Origin: Candidatus Babelota bacterium
GTDB lineage: Bacteria; Babelota; Babeliae; Babelales; Vermiphilaceae
Length of the DNA stretch: 64,000 nucleotides
NCBI GenBank assembly: GCA_049325595.1
Contig: JBMOLF010000015.1
Coordinates: 160,001 to 224,000 of the forward strand
Reading direction: 5' to 3'
Shown here: in pieces, positions 39,606-47,572 of the stretch
Layout: every line of letters begins with the position of its first letter
How positions within the stretch are numbered: the first letter of the stretch is position 1
The notes under the pieces: generated by a model
What the model saw: the letters and a program-made list of their open reading frames with translations, nothing else
Database searches by the model: none
What the model was told of the DNA's origin: nothing
Translations under genes and position numbers: made by a program

Positions 39606-40220
39606 CTAATAGCCACAACCAACACCAAAATATACACCGCCACCACAACCGCCCCAATAAGGGGTATTCCAGTAATAAGGCCAGCCATAGTAACCCCAGT
39701 AGGGAGTCCAATAAGCCGCAGCTTCTTGGGCGCGCAAACGGCGCTCTTCTCGGTTGTCTTTAATTGCTTGATCAATATCAGAACCAAAGTTTTCATCAAT
39801 AAATGAGCGTAATTCAGAGTAACTAAATTCGCCCGTTAACCGTTGGTCAAGCGGTACGCCATTTTTAAATAAAATGATAGTTGGTTCTTTTGAAAGATTA
39901 TAGTCATAATACCACGAATTATCAGTCGCACTGTTTATGACAATAAAACCTATTCCTGCTTCTTTATATTCGCTGACTTGACTTACATCTCGGACGATAT
40001 TTTTAAGCTGTGACAATGCTTGGCGCACACAACGATCTTTTTTTGAGCACCGATCATCATAATAAAAAAACGTAACTGCAAGATCGCCTCTGCTTAGTTC
40101 TTTATTAAAACGATTTTGACTTTCTAAAGCAACATACCTGGTATAAGTAAAATTTTTTATTAAGCACAAGGTAATAATAAAAAACACAAAACCATAAAAA
40201 ATTCCGCGACCATAGTTCAT
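39606..40220 (-). CDS. Thioredoxin-fold protein without CxxC, with Y/W/G-rich tail
   Basis: EPTIILFKNG Trx-fold end; tail YWTPYWGYYGWPYYWNTPYWGGCGGGVYFGVGCGY. Confidence 0.6.
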   Translation of the reverse strand: MNYGRGIFYGFVFFIITLCLIKNFTYTRYVALESQNRFNKELSRGDLAVTFFYYDDRCSKKDRCVRQALSQLKNIVRDVSQVSEYKEAGIGFIVINSATDNSWYYDYNLSKEPTIILFKNGVPLDQRLTGEFSYSELRSFIDENFGSDIDQAIKDNREERRLRAQEAAAYWTPYWGYYGWPYYWNTPYWGGCGGGVYFGVGCGY

Positions 40221-41332
40221 GAAGGAACCTCTATTGCTTTTGCAACCTCAACGGCTTGCTGTGCTTCTTTTTTTACTATTGAAAGCATATCATCTTGATC
40301 TTCAATAATTTTTTTATCATAGTCAGCAGGTAATCGCCCAAAGACCAAGTTGTATGCAAATTCTCTCACATTCTTTTTGTAAGCTCCATGGTTATAGAAA
40401 ACTGAATCATAATGTTTGCGACCTTCAGTAAGCCACAACGTTTTGTACCCACCTACCGCGTTATAGACTGTTTTAACGGCATCAACCGATATTTTTTCAT
40501 CATTTTTACAATGAATGAAAAAGCATGGTACTTTTATTTTTGCGGCCGATTCTGCAGGACGTACCGGCTGTACATCTAAATCAATGTTTTTAAAATCAAC
40601 ATGGGCAACTGTACGTAGTGCAAGCTTTAGCAATGATTGCATATAAGGATGAAATACATATTTTGCCAACAAATCTTTTCCAGGCAAGCCAAATTGATAT
40701 CCCATAAATGAAAAACGAAGACCTTCAAGGCACTGGCGCAGTACATTCTCGGTTGAATCAAAAGGACAGTCAAGTATCATACCAGTAAATAAACTACCAT
40801 CTTTTGCCTGAGCTTCTATTGCCGATACAGCACCCATAGAAAATGCATAGGCAATCATTGGTTTATTTATTAATTGTGGATGTGATTTGGCAAATTTTAC
40901 GGTCGAAATAACATCAAGTGCTTCATTTTTACCTAAAGTACATTGTTGACCTTCTGCATTTTCGCCATGTCCTCTAAAATCAAATAACACGTAATTAAAT
41001 TTTTTCTTTGGGAATAAGCTGCATAAAAAAGCAATATCAAATTTATCACACATAAAGCCATGACAAAAAACTACGGTAGCAACAGCATCTTTATGATGCA
41101 TTATCACCCCATGGCGTACTATTTTTTCGGTTGTTTCTTCATTTTTTGGTGAGTAAATAAGTATTTTATCAATTTGCGAACCATTTACGGGATCATTAAC
41201 ACGTTCAACAACTTTGCCCCATTCATTTTCAAATTGAGGAGTAAGGGTATTAGCAAACACTGAACCAAAAAAATTAAATACAAAGCAAAATCCTATTACT
41301 ATCATGTTATTTTTGTTTTTGAATTGCACCAT
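40217..41332 (-). CDS. Secreted alpha/beta hydrolase
   Basis: FCHGF, FDFRGHGEN, AFSMGA nucleophile elbow, LDCPF, IHCKNDEK, GRKHYD. Confidence 0.85.
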   Translation of the reverse strand: MVQFKNKNNMIVIGFCFVFNFFGSVFANTLTPQFENEWGKVVERVNDPVNGSQIDKILIYSPKNEETTEKIVRHGVIMHHKDAVATVVFCHGFMCDKFDIAFLCSLFPKKKFNYVLFDFRGHGENAEGQQCTLGKNEALDVISTVKFAKSHPQLINKPMIAYAFSMGAVSAIEAQAKDGSLFTGMILDCPFDSTENVLRQCLEGLRFSFMGYQFGLPGKDLLAKYVFHPYMQSLLKLALRTVAHVDFKNIDLDVQPVRPAESAAKIKVPCFFIHCKNDEKISVDAVKTVYNAVGGYKTLWLTEGRKHYDSVFYNHGAYKKNVREFAYNLVFGRLPADYDKKIIEDQDDMLSIVKKEAQQAVEVAKAIEVPS

Positions 41333-41525
41333 GACACAACTCTCACCATTTAAATTTTTACTTACTTTCACTTCTTATCGTATCAAATGAAAATTTCAGT
41401 TTGCAACAAATTTTAAAAGTAAATTAACTTGTACTCAATTAAAACCATTCTATAAGTAAATAAAAGAAGCGATTGTTTTTTTTTGAAACTATTTTGATTT
41501 ACACTTGCAAAAAAAGGATGAATGT

Positions 41526-42191
41526 ATGAAAAAATTAATATTCTTATTCATTTGTATTATGAATACATCTCTTAATGCAGGAGAACCCACCACACCACGT
41601 AGAGCCATAAAACAACTTCTTCTTGCAAATATAAAAGCGGATCAATTATCAGAAGATCAATCTGATGGTGCAGTAACTGAACGCGCAGAATCTCCCCCAT
41701 TTTCACATCATTCAGATGATCAACTGCAAGATGCAATAGAATACTGCCAGGACCTTGATGTACGTCTTACCAAGTTAGAAGAAAAATTTTCAAGTCCTTT
41801 TATTAGCCTAAAAACCCCCTATTCTGCTGGAATGGTAGCTTTAGTAGCACATGCTTGGCTATGGGATGAGGCAATAAAACAATCATCATTATCAGATAAA
41901 CACAAGGAACTATTAGAAAACGTGCTACAAAAAAGCAGAGAAAATTTACAACTTAATTTTGCCCAAACGATAATTATGCAACATCGAGCTCATAATGGAT
42001 GGCATTTTATAGCATGGTGCACTGCTTTAGACCTTCTACAAAGTAAAATAACATTCGATGTAAGGCCGGTAGCAGATTATTTTGGCAATCATTATTCAGA
42101 AGAGACTATTAAAATGGGCATAAAGGGAGTCGCTGCGTGGTGTCTTGCCTCACTTGCACAAGGCATTGTTCAGACAAGACACCAACATTAA
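41526..42191 (+). CDS. Secreted hypothetical protein
   Basis: Start placed at ATG 41526; LNA|GEP. Confidence 0.6.
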   Translation: MKKLIFLFICIMNTSLNAGEPTTPRRAIKQLLLANIKADQLSEDQSDGAVTERAESPPFSHHSDDQLQDAIEYCQDLDVRLTKLEEKFSSPFISLKTPYSAGMVALVAHAWLWDEAIKQSSLSDKHKELLENVLQKSRENLQLNFAQTIIMQHRAHNGWHFIAWCTALDLLQSKITFDVRPVADYFGNHYSEETIKMGIKGVAAWCLASLAQGIVQTRHQH

Positions 42192-42192
42192 G

Positions 42193-43665
42193 TTATTTTA
42201 CCTGGCCATCAAGATATTTCATTACTAAATCAAATAATTCTTGGCGATCCATAGTCTTGTTATAGCGAGTAACTAACGTTTTATTTTTTAACACCAGAAG
42301 AGCTGGTACTTTGTATACTTTATATTTTTGCATAATTTCAGGACTTACTGCTGCATCAATTTTCACAAAAATAGCTTGGTCTTCAAACTTTTGTGCAACT
42401 GATTCAAATACAGGCAGCATATGCATACAAGAAGGACAATAATCAGCAAAAAAGTCGAGAACAACTGGTTTTTCTTCTGCTTGTTCAAGCAGCGCGTCTA
42501 ACTCTTCTATTGTTTTTACTAATTTTACGTAACTTTCTTGTTTTACTTCCGGATTAAAACGATTGGTTTCTAATTGTTTTACCAATTCATCGTTGTAACC
42601 AATTTTAATTAAGAAATTCCAGGCATCTAATGCGGCCTTTACTCCGTTGCCCGCCGCAACTATTGCTTGGCGATACACATGATCTTCGACATCACCTGCA
42701 ACAAAAACACCGGGAATGCATGAGGTTTGACTGCGATTTTTAAGCTTAATATATCCTTGGTCGTCGATTGGCAAGTAATCTTTAAATAATTTTGAATTTG
42801 GCATATGGCCGATTGCCAAAAATACGCCATTTATTGGCATTTCATAGGTTTCGTTTTTACTGTTATCAAATACCGTAATACCAGTAACATGCTTGTCACC
42901 TTTAATTTCTTTAACTTCTCGGTTAAACAGCACGGCAATATTTTCATAGCCTTTTAACTTTTCCTGCATAGATGCTGCCGCACGCATTTTATCTTTACGA
43001 ACTAAAATCGTGACATTTTTAGCGTAGCGAGCAAGCAATAAGGCTTCTTCAACTGCCGTATCACCACCACCAATTACCACCACATCTTTATCTTTGTAAA
43101 AAGCTGCATCACATACGGCGCAGGTAGTTACCCCAATTCCCCAGAACTCTTTTTCACCTTTTACGCCAAGAACAAGCGGGGTAGACCCGGTTGCGACTAT
43201 CACACTCAATGCGGAAATTTTAAAGCCCTCTTGGGTATATACTTCAAATGGCCATACATTGAAATTTACTCGTTCTACGACATCAGAAAGAATATGGGCA
43301 CCCATTTTTTCAGCATGTTTTTTAAAGTTGCCCATAAGGTCTTTACCTAAAATCGATTCATTTCCGGGCCAGTTTTCAACATACGATGTTTCAGTTAACA
43401 CCCCACCGGGTTTTTGCCCTTGAATTATCCAGGTATTAAGACCATTTCGCGCACCATAAATAGCAGCTGGCCATCCTGCAGACCCGCTCCCAATAATTAA
43501 TAAATCCACAATATTTTCTTTATTAAGTGCGTATCTTAAAGTTACATCAGGCATCACACATGTGGTACTGACATTTTTTTCACTTGTTCCTTTAAAACAT
43601 CCAGGCAGCAATAGTATGCCAGAAATTACTAACAGAATACCTTTTGCAAAAACATGTTTTTTCAT
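42193..43665 (-). CDS. trxB: Thioredoxin reductase-thioredoxin fusion with lipoprotein signal
   Basis: IIGSGSAG (FAD), CAVCD, VIGGGDTAVEEA (NADPH), VFVAGDV...RQAIVAAG; C-terminal Trx DFFADYCPSC; N-terminal LLLPG|C. Confidence 0.9.
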   Translation of the reverse strand: MKKHVFAKGILLVISGILLLPGCFKGTSEKNVSTTCVMPDVTLRYALNKENIVDLLIIGSGSAGWPAAIYGARNGLNTWIIQGQKPGGVLTETSYVENWPGNESILGKDLMGNFKKHAEKMGAHILSDVVERVNFNVWPFEVYTQEGFKISALSVIVATGSTPLVLGVKGEKEFWGIGVTTCAVCDAAFYKDKDVVVIGGGDTAVEEALLLARYAKNVTILVRKDKMRAAASMQEKLKGYENIAVLFNREVKEIKGDKHVTGITVFDNSKNETYEMPINGVFLAIGHMPNSKLFKDYLPIDDQGYIKLKNRSQTSCIPGVFVAGDVEDHVYRQAIVAAGNGVKAALDAWNFLIKIGYNDELVKQLETNRFNPEVKQESYVKLVKTIEELDALLEQAEEKPVVLDFFADYCPSCMHMLPVFESVAQKFEDQAIFVKIDAAVSPEIMQKYKVYKVPALLVLKNKTLVTRYNKTMDRQELFDLVMKYLDGQVK

Positions 43666-43761
43666 GAGGTTCCTTGTTTTTTTACATTTTTTAAATTTTC
43701 GCTCTTCTAGTTATACTAAAAAGTAGCGATTTCACACAGTAATTTTTACAAAGGACGCATT

Positions 43762-44631
43762 ATGAAACAAGTTCAAGCATTATTTTTGAGTATGATAATC
43801 ATTATGGGCGGTTACTCTCATAGTATTTTGGCAAGCAGCTTGTTCCATTCAATTAAAAAGTTTTATCATCATATCCGATCTACTCAATCAAAAACTATAC
43901 TTCAGGTAGTTACACCACCTAGCTCAATTAACTTTCAAGATATAGTTGGCTTAGAAAACGCAAAACAAATTCTTACTCATATAACTGCACTAACGCCAAT
44001 GGCTCGTGATACTCAAGACGTTTTACTCAAAAAATTAATAGTTTTAACCGGAGATTCACGCACGGGGAAGACATTTTTATCCATTGCCTTTGTTAATGAA
44101 CTCAAAAAATGCAATGCTAATTTTTTATGTCTTATGCCACGAACAATAATCGATAAAAATAATATCAACCAATTAGAAAATGATTTAGAACATTTAAACA
44201 AAGCAGTTTTAATTTTTGATGAAAGTTGTTTTTATGAAGAGTCTCATTTAAAAAAGCCTATTTTTACCGAGATTATTCGAATATTTACCAAGCATATAGA
44301 GAAAAATCCTTCCAAAGAACTTTTTTGCGTCATGCATTTATTCTCTGGTGAAGTTAAACCAATTCTCAATGAAATAGACCCAGAAATATACCAACATATT
44401 CCTTTAACAAGTCCAACAGAATCGGAACGTACAGAATACATTCGCAAATGGATCTCATCGTATAAATATCCTAACCTGTGGAATAAAATTGAAATTACCG
44501 ACTTGGTTAACCTTACCGGTGGACTCACCTATTCTTTAATTGATGGGCTTTTACAAAAATGTGCTATAACAGCTCAAACGCAGAACCAACAAATAAGTTA
44601 TGAAATGATATTAAACATTCATAAAAAGTGA
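43762..44631 (+). CDS. Divergent AAA+ ATPase domain protein with signal-like N-terminus
   Basis: INFQDIVGLENAKQ, Walker A GDSRTGKT, Walker B LIFDES. Confidence 0.7.
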   Translation: MKQVQALFLSMIIIMGGYSHSILASSLFHSIKKFYHHIRSTQSKTILQVVTPPSSINFQDIVGLENAKQILTHITALTPMARDTQDVLLKKLIVLTGDSRTGKTFLSIAFVNELKKCNANFLCLMPRTIIDKNNINQLENDLEHLNKAVLIFDESCFYEESHLKKPIFTEIIRIFTKHIEKNPSKELFCVMHLFSGEVKPILNEIDPEIYQHIPLTSPTESERTEYIRKWISSYKYPNLWNKIEITDLVNLTGGLTYSLIDGLLQKCAITAQTQNQQISYEMILNIHKK

Positions 44632-44785: not shown

Positions 44786-47572
44786 ATGAATCGAGCTCGC
44801 ATACTATTGTGTTTAGCTTTTCTGTGCTCTGTTGAATACAACTTCGCAGAAGATCAACTACCTATTACCACCCAAGAATCAGTTGAATCAGTAAGCCCTG
44901 CGGCTCAATTTTTTACCAATAAAATAGTTCCTCAAATTGAACATCTTGCCGCCCTTATAGCTCATTCTGAAACATTTTTTATACCCGATTCACAAAAACA
45001 AAAAAGCGATGCTCTTCTTACCTATTTAAATGAATTTGAAGCTACTATTCAAAAAGCCAATTCGACTCCTATTAATGACCAATTTAATTCATCATTATTG
45101 CAGATTAACTATGGCATTAGCCAAGAAATAGCAGTATGGCTTAAAACCAACTTTGAACAAGTAATGCCATTTGATACTAATCGCTATCTTTCAGAACCTG
45201 TTTCTTTAACCCCCGAGCAGCAAGAAATAGTATTTGAACAAATTAATAAAACACTTGCCGAAGTTACTAAAGAAATCGGCGAAAAAGTTCAAGATGTATT
45301 AGCCGAATTAGTATTAGCCGTGCGCAATCAAATTACTAATCTTGATTTTTCTTTGCAAAAAATAACTGCCATTGTTAATAACAGCACCCATAAAAATAAA
45401 AACGATTTACGTGCTAACATTACTGAATTGCGCTCAGTATTACAAGGCATTCAACACGCAATTATAACTTCTCCGGCTGATATGCGAATGCTGGTTATGG
45501 GTCACGAAATAACCCGTGCGATTATTACTCATTTGGCCAATGCAACCAGCAATAAATTTGCAGGTATTCAACAATTTGATTTAGAAAAACAACTTAAACG
45601 TAATCCTAAAGAACTACCTCAATCAATCGATGAGTTAAAAAAAGAATTAGCCAAAACGAGCAAAGAATTAGCAAAATTACAATCAAAAGCAGAAAATGCT
45701 GATCTTACCTGGGTTAACCGTCTTGCCCGTGCATTTGATAATCACATCGTTACTCCCGCACAAAAATACCATTTACCAACACGTATTGGTACTACTTTGG
45801 TGGTAACCGGTTTAGCCACATACTTGTGGTGGCATTTTGATCAACATCGCTATGCTGACGCTATTCCAGGATTTAGAAAAATATTTAAATGGAGTAGCAA
45901 ACAAACTATTATAGAAACCACTTATTGTATAAATGATAAAGGTGAGAACACTACTGTCGAAAAACCTATTCAAGATCCGAGTCGTCCATTTGGTTTCTTA
46001 AAATATACCGAAGATTATTTGGCAGGTGTATGGAATGCTCAAAAACCAATTGCTAAATTTTTAATGGTAACTACTGGTGCTGCTATATATAAAGAATGGA
46101 AAGTAAGTATAAGCCCTTGGCTTACTAAAAAAATAAGAGCTACATTCAATCGCCTTAAAGGTGGTACGTACCGTAAAATTGCTGACGGTATTGAAGAAAT
46201 TCGCCCAACCGTAACATTTGACGATGTTATTGGCCTTGATTATGCAAAAGAAATGGTGCGCCCGCATTTAAAATATATTAAAGACCCTGAGCGTTGGGAT
46301 GCAAATGAGATTGCTCCACCTACTGGTATTTTGTTAACGGGACCTTCACGTACCGGTAAAACATTCTTAGCGCGTGCTATTCAAGGCGAAATTAACAAAG
46401 AAAATCCAGAAAAAGGTGTTCGCTTCTTTGCGCTTGATGCCAGCATGCTTGAAAATGATAGCATTGAGCTGTGGCTCCATATGGCAAAAATGTGTGCCCC
46501 ATGCGTTATTTTCATCGATGAGATTGATTTACTTGGTCTACAACGTTCTAGCAATACTAAGCGCTTGAGTGAATTCTTACAAGCAATGAGTGGTGTTATG
46601 GACAAAGATCCAAAAAAACAAGTTATTATTATTGCTACTACCAATAGACCAGAAAACTTAGATTCTGCCTTATTGCAAAATGGTCGTTTTGGATTAGAAA
46701 TTCGCTTCCAAAAACCAACATTAAAAGAACGTCAGATGTATATCATGCGCGAACTTAACAAGCATGCAATCGACCCTGAGTCTTTTGGCATTGATCTTGC
46801 TAAGCTTACCTATGAAACAGAAGATGCTTCTTACGAAGATATTAAAGCAATGATTGATGATGCATTGATTGCGGCAAGTATTCGTGGCGAAATTATTAAT
46901 CAATCAATTTTTGAACGAGCACTCGATAAGAAAATTCGCAAAATTATTGATGTTGATTCAAAAAATATTTCTGATAAAGAAAAACATTTTATGGCAGCGC
47001 ACCAAGCTGGTCGTACCTTAGTACATCTTTTATTAAATCTTGAATCAAAAATATCTAAAGTTACTATTAGACCTATTACGGTTGAAGTAAAAGAAGAAAG
47101 CGTTATTGACCAATATTATAAACCAACCGGTTCTAAACAAACGGGCACTGATGTGGGCGCTGTGTTTACCTACCATGAACACGATACTAACGACTTTTTA
47201 AGTGCACAAGAGCAAGAAAAATTATTTAAATCGTATCTTGCTGGCCGTGTTGCTGAAAAAGTAATTTTGGGTACCTGCAGTAATTATAAAAATGGTTACA
47301 AACAATGGGTATTTACCCGCCTAAAAACCATGCTTACTGAAGGTATTAATATAAAAGAGCTGTCTAAAAAAGACCAAGATCGCATTAATCAACAAGCACT
47401 TGAGTTAATTGCTCAGTATGAAGCTGAAATTGAAAAGCTCTTGCGTGAAAATAAAGAAAAGCTTGCGCTACTTACTGATGTGTTGCGCGTTAAACAAACA
47501 TTAAGTATTGATGAAATTAATTACATTTTGTTTGAAAACCACGAAATACAAGAAACTCCAGCTGCAGCGTAA
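44786..47572 (+). CDS. FtsH-like AAA+ ATPase with degenerate M41 protease domain
   Basis: TFDDVIGLD, GPSRTGKT, IFIDEID, TTNRPENLDSALLQNGRF, AHQAGR (canonical HEAGH), LAGRVAE; signal peptide and TM segment. Confidence 0.85.
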   Translation: MNRARILLCLAFLCSVEYNFAEDQLPITTQESVESVSPAAQFFTNKIVPQIEHLAALIAHSETFFIPDSQKQKSDALLTYLNEFEATIQKANSTPINDQFNSSLLQINYGISQEIAVWLKTNFEQVMPFDTNRYLSEPVSLTPEQQEIVFEQINKTLAEVTKEIGEKVQDVLAELVLAVRNQITNLDFSLQKITAIVNNSTHKNKNDLRANITELRSVLQGIQHAIITSPADMRMLVMGHEITRAIITHLANATSNKFAGIQQFDLEKQLKRNPKELPQSIDELKKELAKTSKELAKLQSKAENADLTWVNRLARAFDNHIVTPAQKYHLPTRIGTTLVVTGLATYLWWHFDQHRYADAIPGFRKIFKWSSKQTIIETTYCINDKGENTTVEKPIQDPSRPFGFLKYTEDYLAGVWNAQKPIAKFLMVTTGAAIYKEWKVSISPWLTKKIRATFNRLKGGTYRKIADGIEEIRPTVTFDDVIGLDYAKEMVRPHLKYIKDPERWDANEIAPPTGILLTGPSRTGKTFLARAIQGEINKENPEKGVRFFALDASMLENDSIELWLHMAKMCAPCVIFIDEIDLLGLQRSSNTKRLSEFLQAMSGVMDKDPKKQVIIIATTNRPENLDSALLQNGRFGLEIRFQKPTLKERQMYIMRELNKHAIDPESFGIDLAKLTYETEDASYEDIKAMIDDALIAASIRGEIINQSIFERALDKKIRKIIDVDSKNISDKEKHFMAAHQAGRTLVHLLLNLESKISKVTIRPITVEVKEESVIDQYYKPTGSKQTGTDVGAVFTYHEHDTNDFLSAQEQEKLFKSYLAGRVAEKVILGTCSNYKNGYKQWVFTRLKTMLTEGINIKELSKKDQDRINQQALELIAQYEAEIEKLLRENKEKLALLTDVLRVKQTLSIDEINYILFENHEIQETPAAA

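Follow-up and report, generated by a model that had tools for sequence, protein, structure and literature searches.

Can a thioredoxin reductase that depends on NADPH do its work outside the bacterial cytoplasm? The question is raised by a gene in a stretch of 64,000 nucleotides (the window) from a Candidatus Babelota bacterium (GenBank assembly GCA_049325595.1, contig JBMOLF010000015.1, below C15; C15:160001-224000). In the textbook view, NADPH-dependent thioredoxin reductases (TrxR) are cytoplasmic, and only electrons cross the membrane, via DsbD or CcdA. The gene in question lies on the minus strand, a detail omitted from the initial annotation of the window, and encodes such a reductase fused to a thioredoxin (Trx). 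Its product begins, in the translation of the open reading frame (ORF), with MKKHVFAKGILLVISGILLLPGC, which resembles the signal peptide of a lipoprotein. The source genome (1.29 Mb, 34.7% GC) belongs to the Dependentiae, order Babeliales, and shares its genus with the record of Candidatus Dependentiae bacterium Noda2021 (AP025250.1). Judged from sequence, an enzyme that usually stays in the cytoplasm probably acts outside it in this amoeba parasite. That the fusion is translocated out of the cytoplasm seems likely, and to the reading argued here, that it is exported and retained on the bacterial membrane as a lipoprotein, I would give a probability of about 0.5.

The sequence favours an intact enzyme, predicted to be an NADPH-dependent TrxR-Trx of the NTRC type (Table 1). 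Pfam assigns residues 54-341 to Pyr_redox_2 (PF07992, E = 6.6e-47) and residues 386-481 to Thioredoxin (PF00085, E = 1.3e-18, 67.3 bits against a cut-off of 23.5). The NCBIfam equivalog model for thioredoxin-disulfide reductase, TIGR01292, reaches 352.7 bits, above its cut-off of 343.45, and the thioredoxin equivalog model TIGR01068 gives 61.5 bits, below its cut-off of 96.8. Throughout an alignment of 62 sequences C182, C185, C410, C413, P454 and R223 are invariant, as are the glycine motifs GSGSAG (residues 59-64) and GGGDTAVEEA (199-208), and R228 is present in at least 90%. Aligned with HRRDEFRA of a solved mycobacterial TrxR, the NADPH motif VRKDKMRA keeps the basic residues R223, K224 and R228, and the His of the HRRxxxR site is replaced by Val, as it is in the NTRC-type chain described below. 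The Trx site reads YCPSC instead of the canonical WCGPC, and the majority of the family has YCPSC or YCPTC. An AlphaFold2 model, calculated with 62 homologues, has a mean pLDDT of 88.9 and falls below 50 only at residues 1-28; its target-normalised TM-score is 0.92 against the E. coli TrxR-Trx complex 1f6m and 0.94 against 5mh4. The initial annotation had described a complete low-molecular-weight TrxR with CAVC and an NADPH motif, followed by a C-terminal Trx with YCPSC. Pfam, TIGR01292 and the motifs bear out the first part, and the PF00085 match together with the CPSC at residues 410-413 bears out the second.

The comparison with NTRC of plastids and cyanobacteria, likewise a single chain in which a low-Mr TrxR precedes a Trx, had also been drawn before and is supported. 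Among solved structures the best sequence match is an NTRC-type TrxR chain of 487 amino acids (aa) from Chlamydomonas (7p9d/7p9e), which aligns over both modules (E = 1.8e-76) and has VRGERMRA where the fusion has VRKDKMRA, and the Atlas neighbours of the fusion are cyanobacterial TrxR+Trx clusters. However, NTRC lacks a bacterial export signal, and its Trx site is CGPC, not CPSC. Its main client is 2-Cys peroxiredoxin, and for this expected partner (AhpC/Prx, PF00578) no match over cut-off was found in the 95%-complete genome. The TrxR-Trx of Mycobacterium leprae is a hybrid on one polypeptide like the fusion, but it is cytoplasmic and leaderless. The E. coli pair TrxB/TrxA (1f6m, 1tde) has the same fold and catalytic motifs, although TrxB of that type is soluble, cytoplasmic and unfused; this genome has such a copy as well. 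The DsbD/CcdA route with TlpA, ResA and CcmG likewise brings reducing power to a tethered extracytoplasmic CxxC protein of the Trx fold, and CP[ST]C resembles CcmG-type sites; in that route, however, NADPH is consumed on the cytoplasmic side and the membrane is crossed by electrons alone, whereas here the flavoenzyme itself bears the export signal. AhpF is also a TrxR-like flavoprotein fused to Trx-fold domains, and TIGR03140 scores 238.5 bits on the fusion, but its cut-off of 502.9 is far above this score, the Trx-like domains of AhpF are N-terminal, and no AhpC was found here. The alignments thus support calling the fusion NTRC-like, in the sense of similarity and not of tree-based descent. 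The same applies to the best-hit column of a supplement on a paralogue in another species, which reports similarity to NTRC and not descent (PMC4378268).

Is the leader real? It consists of an n-region MKKHVFAK (+3), the h-region GILLVISGILLL and the lipobox LLPG-C. The uncharged core measures about 12 residues, the length of a signal peptide and too short for a stable membrane span. I compared it with Noda2021, the sole named close relative and the one locus that a search of genome contigs for related loci yielded; its protein is 85% identical. The two genomes share the AGGAA core of the ribosome-binding site, the ATG and another block that lies further upstream. Five of the 23 leader codons differ synonymously, two of these inside the codons for L-P-G-C, and six differ non-synonymously, with the positive n-region and the hydrophobic core maintained. 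The leader is kept in P0002, P0003 and L044, and the lipobox in the closest relatives.

It would be an annotation artefact if translation started at Met38, resulting in a soluble, cytoplasmic NTRC-like enzyme. An in-frame MPDVT is indeed present here and in P0002, but no ribosome-binding site is seen before Met38, at the protein level the leader persists throughout the order, and Noda2021 has NPEVV at this position, with Asn for the Met and no other Met between the leader and the GxGxxG Rossmann strand of the TrxR fold. I therefore regard this start, which the initial annotation had itself named as a threat to its reading, as highly improbable. Dual starts giving two locations were considered and rejected, as Met38 is not conserved and the Met of other homologues falls at a helix position that varies between Leu, Met and Val.

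The Pro at -2 makes the lipobox fail a PROSITE-style pattern, but it passes a broader G+LPP-style pattern. Such boxes are at home in this genome: 11 of 24 pattern-matching ORFs have Pro at -2, and over 1252 ORFs the motif [LVIMF]-P-[GAS]-C occurs 12 times with its Cys at positions 14-40 versus 7 times elsewhere, or 0.35 versus 0.02 per 1000 residues. Among the carriers are BamD/YfiO (LLPSC), an outer-membrane efflux protein (IIPSC), a SurA-like PPIase (LLPAC) and a GH1 beta-glucosidase (LIPAC); the Pal-like OmpA protein has IAGC. As a side observation, x-P-[GAS]-C is a common lipobox here, and standard patterns that forbid Pro at -2 would miss such proteins. Lgt and LspA are both encoded. Export would use Sec, since the leader lacks a twin arginine and no TatC was found in the genome, which is 95% complete. 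On sequence, the most favoured reading of this gene is a Sec/SPII lipoprotein precursor.

The leader is not restricted to this species. The fusion (P0001) and its 120 best matches, together 121 proteins, are called group A here. All 120 matches (447-775 aa) have both PF07992 and PF00085, and their sources, where named, are Dependentiae or Babeliales, with one from a moss assembly. A hydrophobic segment precedes the Rossmann strand in 117 of the 121; of the four without a segment by the rule used, one truly has none, two are apparently truncated and one has a visible leader below the threshold. Conservation of the leader in orthologs, proposed earlier as a check, is thus confirmed in the 117 of 121 and, down to ribosome-binding site, ATG and lipobox, in Noda2021, and the leader can be called a genuine, conserved export or anchor signal as far as sequence can tell. 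The moss-derived relative, P0004, has 775 aa with a leader, a TrxR, a Trx and a second TrxR; its source is probably a Dependentiae-like contaminant of the moss assembly.

Across the order, a TrxR match is found in 121 of 121 sampled Babeliales genomes, a two-domain copy in at least 89 of them and two such copies in at least 11, both being hand counts over 150 listed matches, with 120 further matches unlisted. One genus of 8 genomes has a match to plain TrxB only, apart from a single genome with a second, weak match (best E = 8.9e-40). Among the fetched loci, paralogues of a group B have a leader in 10 of 10 cases and plain TrxBs in none of three. In a further group C (GGGIGG, CATC, Trx site CPPC or CYPC) the lipobox is canonical in 7 of 7, for instance LVGC, FFGC, FTGC, FSAC and LIGC. 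Forms consisting of TrxR only have a leader in 11 of 11, for instance MKNYLLLVAVIFINILSAHA followed by AVQ, a count that is biased because these were picked for frames longer than plain TrxB. A query with group C retrieved 91 two-domain proteins, 85 of them with a leader (53 of the signal-peptide or anchor type, 32 lipobox-like), and many of these leaders are classic AxA-type signal peptides. The matches show the NADPH motif VR[KR]xxxRA and the Trx site WCGPC or WCPPC; four are labelled Chlamydiae, Chlamydiota or Rhabdochlamydiaceae, one Verrucomicrobia and four Dependentiae or Babeliales. A FastTree of the TrxR domains separates a leader-bearing clade C, the plain TrxBs, and a leader-bearing clade A+B that includes the TrxR-only forms; being midpoint-rooted and without an outgroup, it cannot tell one gain of the leader from two. 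Several TrxR-only forms are nested among fusions, which implies that the Trx domain was lost and the leader kept. In one genome (G012:C2:29912-33421) two leader-bearing TrxR-Trx genes stand in tandem, one of them apparently without a Trx active site (NLPLT in the alignment).

If the leader acts as it reads, the fusion would enter the Sec pathway as a lipoprotein precursor, Lgt would lipidate Cys23, and LspA would cleave between Gly22 and Cys23. The mature enzyme of 468 aa would then hang from the extracytoplasmic leaflet of a membrane by a flexible tether of about 20 residues, facing the periplasm or located at the cell surface or on vesicles. Electrons would pass from NADPH, which would be derived from the host, to FAD, to C182/C185, to the Trx pair C410/C413 and from there to disulfides of client proteins; as in NTRC, this Trx pair would probably belong to the partner subunit. 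Candidate clients would be exported single-domain thioredoxins and conserved leader-bearing neighbours. Translocation itself, the loading of FAD after Sec export, the access to NADPH and the clients are steps that I infer. At least three single-domain thioredoxins of the genome are placed behind signal peptides, one of them in the window (Table 1), and the latter is a possible client or partner of the fusion outside the cytoplasm.

Several observations weigh against this scheme. A flavoprotein exported by Sec has to acquire its FAD outside the cytoplasm, which is unexplained, as is the source of NADPH there. The lipobox is not conserved in group A: the 117 leader-bearing proteins comprise 40 with a lipobox-like [GAS]-C, 23 with xQC, whose Gln at -1 does not fit a canonical LspA site, and 54 whose anchor lacks a Cys box. 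The conserved feature is therefore the hydrophobic N-terminus, not lipidation. Of the earlier claim of a lipoprotein anchor, the part that concerns this protein is supported by its conserved leader, its lipobox of the genome's own type and the presence of Lgt and LspA, but for the family a strict reading of this kind is opposed by a lipobox-like Cys in only 40 of 121 homologues. The genome encodes a full-length DsbD, so the classical reducing route to the periplasm is already available. Its G6PD and 6PGD-like enzyme are leaderless and would feed an enzyme facing the cytoplasm. Among possible clients, the genome yielded neither an exported peroxiredoxin nor an exported Msr, and its MsrAB is leaderless. 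Finally, single-copy enzymes of sugar-nucleotide metabolism such as UDP-glucose dehydrogenase (Ugd) also have hydrophobic N-termini, so in this phylum a leader is no proof of export.

Alternatively, the fusion may be tethered to the membrane while facing the cytoplasm, held there by an N-terminus that either remains uncleaved as an anchor or binds the membrane peripherally, and fed by the cell's own G6PD/6PGD; it could then pass electrons to DsbD or to membrane-proximal clients. Ugd and DsbD agree with this arrangement, as do the conserved NADPH motif beside cytoplasmic NADPH-producing enzymes and the 54 homologues without a Cys box, many of which have clusters of K/R right after the hydrophobic segment. 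Such clusters, however, also follow the Cys in the genome's Pal-like and outer-membrane efflux lipoproteins. Positive-inside charge counts as a test of topology were set aside: the flanks of the anchor class average +2.0/-0.3 on the N-side and +2.5/-1.2 on the C-side, and with bona fide lipoproteins of the genome also rich in K/R after the Cys, the test does not discriminate. A core of about 12 residues behind three lysines, with a lipobox of BamD's type that is maintained through synonymous changes, speaks against a cytoplasm-facing enzyme, as do the canonical lipoboxes in 7 of 7 proteins of group C and the cleavable AxA-type signal peptides of Chlamydiota-labelled relatives.

The remaining TrxR genes bear on the same alternative. 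The genome has three: the fusion, a second leader-bearing fusion and a leaderless plain TrxB, which is the second, cytoplasmic trxB that had been asked for as a check. The second fusion (474 aa) has a hydrophobic N-terminus, CTIC and the degenerate NADPH motif VREPQLQA, and its Trx has a CSLC site and lacks the cis-Pro. The plain TrxB (307 aa) is encoded on C15 outside the window, where it adjoins the trigger factor gene, and its NADPH-phosphate motif HIKSKLTA retains just one of the three basic residues present in the fusion. At the HRRxxxR position the plain TrxBs of three Babeliales genomes read HIKSKLTA (this genome), HIKDKLTA or QISESLTA. Going by this motif the plain TrxB may prefer NADH, with the fusion possibly serving as the principal NADPH-linked reductase, which would suit a cytoplasm-facing enzyme. 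A leaderless TrxA (WCGPC) is present. A second WCGPC TrxA (C3:377-3634) has genes for an acyl-CoA dehydrogenase and a TonB-receptor-like protein as neighbours, on a contig, C3, that may be foreign to this organism.

Evidence of the same kind comes from a genus called g43 here. At E <= 1e-20, two of its genomes (G040 and G066) yield one TrxR match apiece, in the two-domain form; the N-terminus reads MTYQAKIYFILPIILLCASVGFYVSQKK in one, without a canonical lipobox, and MAYQARVFYVLPIVVAFICLSGC in the other, with LSGC as the lipobox. A leaderless WCGPC thioredoxin of 108 aa is present in 3 of 3 g43 genomes. Were the fusion wholly exported there, this cytoplasmic TrxA would be without a known reductase, which is a further point against export. 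Either another enzyme reduces TrxA, or the fusion stays partly inside, or the family faces the cytoplasm. Taking both sides together, I consider a cytoplasm-facing fusion unlikely.

The preferred reading, an exported lipoprotein, also needs a supply of cofactors. None of 61 Babeliales genomes with a completeness of 90% or more, the present genome among them, gave a match to NAD kinase (PF01513), all 14 control genomes did, and the genome has two TLC nucleotide transporters. Together these suggest that NADP(H) comes from the host and passes through the periplasm, and NADP(H) is probably host-derived. The initial annotation had supposed that the reductase could use host NADPH. This is plausible but unproven: the kept NADPH motif and the lack of an NAD kinase match in the 61 genomes agree with it, and the leaderless pentose-phosphate enzymes do not.

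Export might also continue into the host, with the fusion delivered via outer-membrane vesicles, on the surface or by release, to serve as a redox effector in the cytosol of the amoeba, which is rich in NADPH and FAD. Leaders abound in this proteome. Applied to the 622 ORFs with 250 aa or more, a simple hydrophobicity rule flags an N-terminal segment in 54.5%, compared with about 7% for windows placed internally; 266 of the 622 ORFs have no hydrophobic segment besides the N-terminal one. Many signal-peptide-bearing ankyrin and AAA proteins occur in the phylum. The leader-bearing proteins of this genome include an adenylate kinase, a uridine kinase, the Ugd already mentioned, several AAA ATPases and two MutS-like proteins, and the two kinases and the ATPases would also need host-type cofactors; a second adenylate kinase, in the secY-adk-map cluster, is leaderless, the same pattern as for TrxB. 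A signal-peptide Trx with apparent ankyrin repeats, recognised by eye, points in the same direction. The genome papers on Dependentiae, in the sections available, propose secretion into the host and describe vesicles (PMC4378268, PMC6561590). For Chromulinavorax destructans, signal peptides on 44% of coding sequences, replication in the host cytoplasm and release of vesicles are reported (PMC6561590). For Babela massiliensis, expansions of thioredoxin reductases and of ATP-dependent Zn proteases are described, and its signal-peptide proteins are proposed to be secreted into the amoebal cytoplasm (PMC4378268). In supplementary file 9 of the latter paper, two longer TrxB-family proteins are SignalP-positive in one of three modes and the plain TrxB in none, calls that go undiscussed in the available sections of its text (PMC4378268). 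However, a lipid anchor argues for retention on the bacterial membrane, and the fusion protein has no visible host-targeting feature, so that I find delivery to the host improbable.

The initial annotation had also proposed that a disulfide-crosslinked envelope could be the target. I found no support for this, and the Cys-rich exported ORFs compared with Pfam have no family match above threshold. These ORFs deserve mention by themselves. At C23:14803-15291 a lipoprotein-like ORF of 162 aa has a mature part beginning with RRRCYDCPPKCEEQC, and C15:66119-73953 and C23:27389-32951 hold several leader-bearing ORFs of 350-880 aa with 3-5.6% Cys. At the thresholds used, Pfam gave no match for the 162-aa ORF, for three of the four Cys-rich ORFs on C15 and for two of the three on C23; one on C23 (C23:27389-28456) has a sub-threshold match to Zn_ribbon_PaaD (21.4 bits, cut-off 27). 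DsbB was not found in the genome. A membrane ORF of 129 aa with CVLC (C15:239877-240266) has, by eye, the look of a VKOR-type disulfide oxidoreductase.

The neighbourhood of the fusion was compared over 21 loci, the window plus 20 relatives. Downstream, a hydrolase gene and often a gene for a leader-bearing protein of about 210 aa follow (Table 1), the latter often overlapping the hydrolase gene by 4 nucleotides; leucyl aminopeptidase (PepA) comes next in 8 of 21 loci. Upstream, besides the FtsH-like gene, rpiB is present in 12 of 21. In the window, two extra genes are inserted within the conserved block. I do not take this synteny as strong evidence for a functional operon, since the block includes the leaderless housekeeping genes PepA and RpiB. 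The 204-aa neighbour has a C-terminal tail rich in Trp, Tyr and Gly, with GCGGGVYFGVGCGY as its last residues, and Pfam gave no family for four of its relatives. The fusion gene and a convergent ORF of 228 aa (41505-42191, no family) end one base apart, and no terminator-like hairpin was seen between them (42189-42195). A promoter and terminator scan of 41400-43900 was uninformative, with 6 promoter-like sites against 8.7 expected.

Table 1. Features of the fusion gene and of nearby genes, in window coordinates.
Feature	Position	Strand	Basis
TrxR-Trx fusion coding sequence: leader, tether, TrxR, linker and Trx; 490 aa plus stop	42193..43665	-	ORF reading, Pfam, NCBIfam
Ribosome-binding site AAGGAA, 4 nt before ATG	43670..43675	-	AGGAA core kept in Noda2021 record
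Predicted signal peptide, codons 1-23; lipobox L-P-G-C with Cys23	43597..43665	-	ORF reading, genome lipobox survey, relatives
Flexible tether, residues 24-45; little conserved, model confidence low as far as residue 28	43531..43596	-	Alignment, model
Low-Mr thioredoxin reductase module, residues 54-352	42610..43506	-	Pfam, NCBIfam, structure model
Redox-active CAVC, residues 182-185 (C182, C185)	43111..43122	-	Read directly; invariant in 62 aligned homologues
NADPH 2'-phosphate motif VRKDKMRA, residues 222-229	42979..43002	-	Alignments
Interdomain linker, residues 353-385; helix 359-368 in model	42511..42609	-	AlphaFold2 model
Thioredoxin module, residues 386-481; invariant cis-Pro P454	42223..42510	-	Pfam, alignment, model
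Trx active site CPSC, residues 410-413 (C410, C413 invariant)	42427..42438	-	Read directly, alignment
Thioredoxin, 130 aa, WCRPC, signal-peptide-like leader	37102..37494	+	PF00085, 9e-20
Leader-bearing protein, 204 aa; weak Trx-fold match, no CxxC	39606..40220	-	After hydrolase in 13/21 loci
Leader-bearing alpha/beta hydrolase (Hydrolase_4)	40217..41371	-	Pfam; downstream of fusion in 19/21 loci
Divergent FtsH-like AAA + M41 protein	44786..47572	+	Upstream neighbour in 18/21 loci

The TrxR-Trx fusion as such is known. A literature search found no paper on an exported flavoprotein TrxR or on a conserved export or anchor signal on a TrxR that depends on flavin and NADPH, and the one passage that it returned on a 'membrane-bound thioredoxin reductase' concerns quinol-linked enzymes. 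The exported-TrxR reading spans the order Babeliales and is mirrored in Chlamydiota-labelled proteins. In its widest and more tentative form, which I regard as somewhat doubtful, it says that two phyla whose members live as obligate parasites inside protists, the Dependentiae and the environmental Chlamydiota, operate an entire NADPH-driven thioredoxin system outside the cytoplasm, with NADPH and perhaps FAD taken directly from the host. The components of this system would be exported TrxR, TrxR-Trx fusions and exported thioredoxins, and it would offer a route to envelope or host targets that bypasses DsbD. Should the fusion instead face the cytoplasm, the many 'signal peptides' of the phylum and its 'secretome' would need to be read anew. 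Several members of the Dependentiae grow in amoebae, hence the question is testable. If the export reading is true, NADPH and FAD would be accessible outside the bacterial cytoplasm within the host cell, and an exported flavoenzyme would represent a different way to power extracytoplasmic thiol chemistry in host-dependent bacteria.

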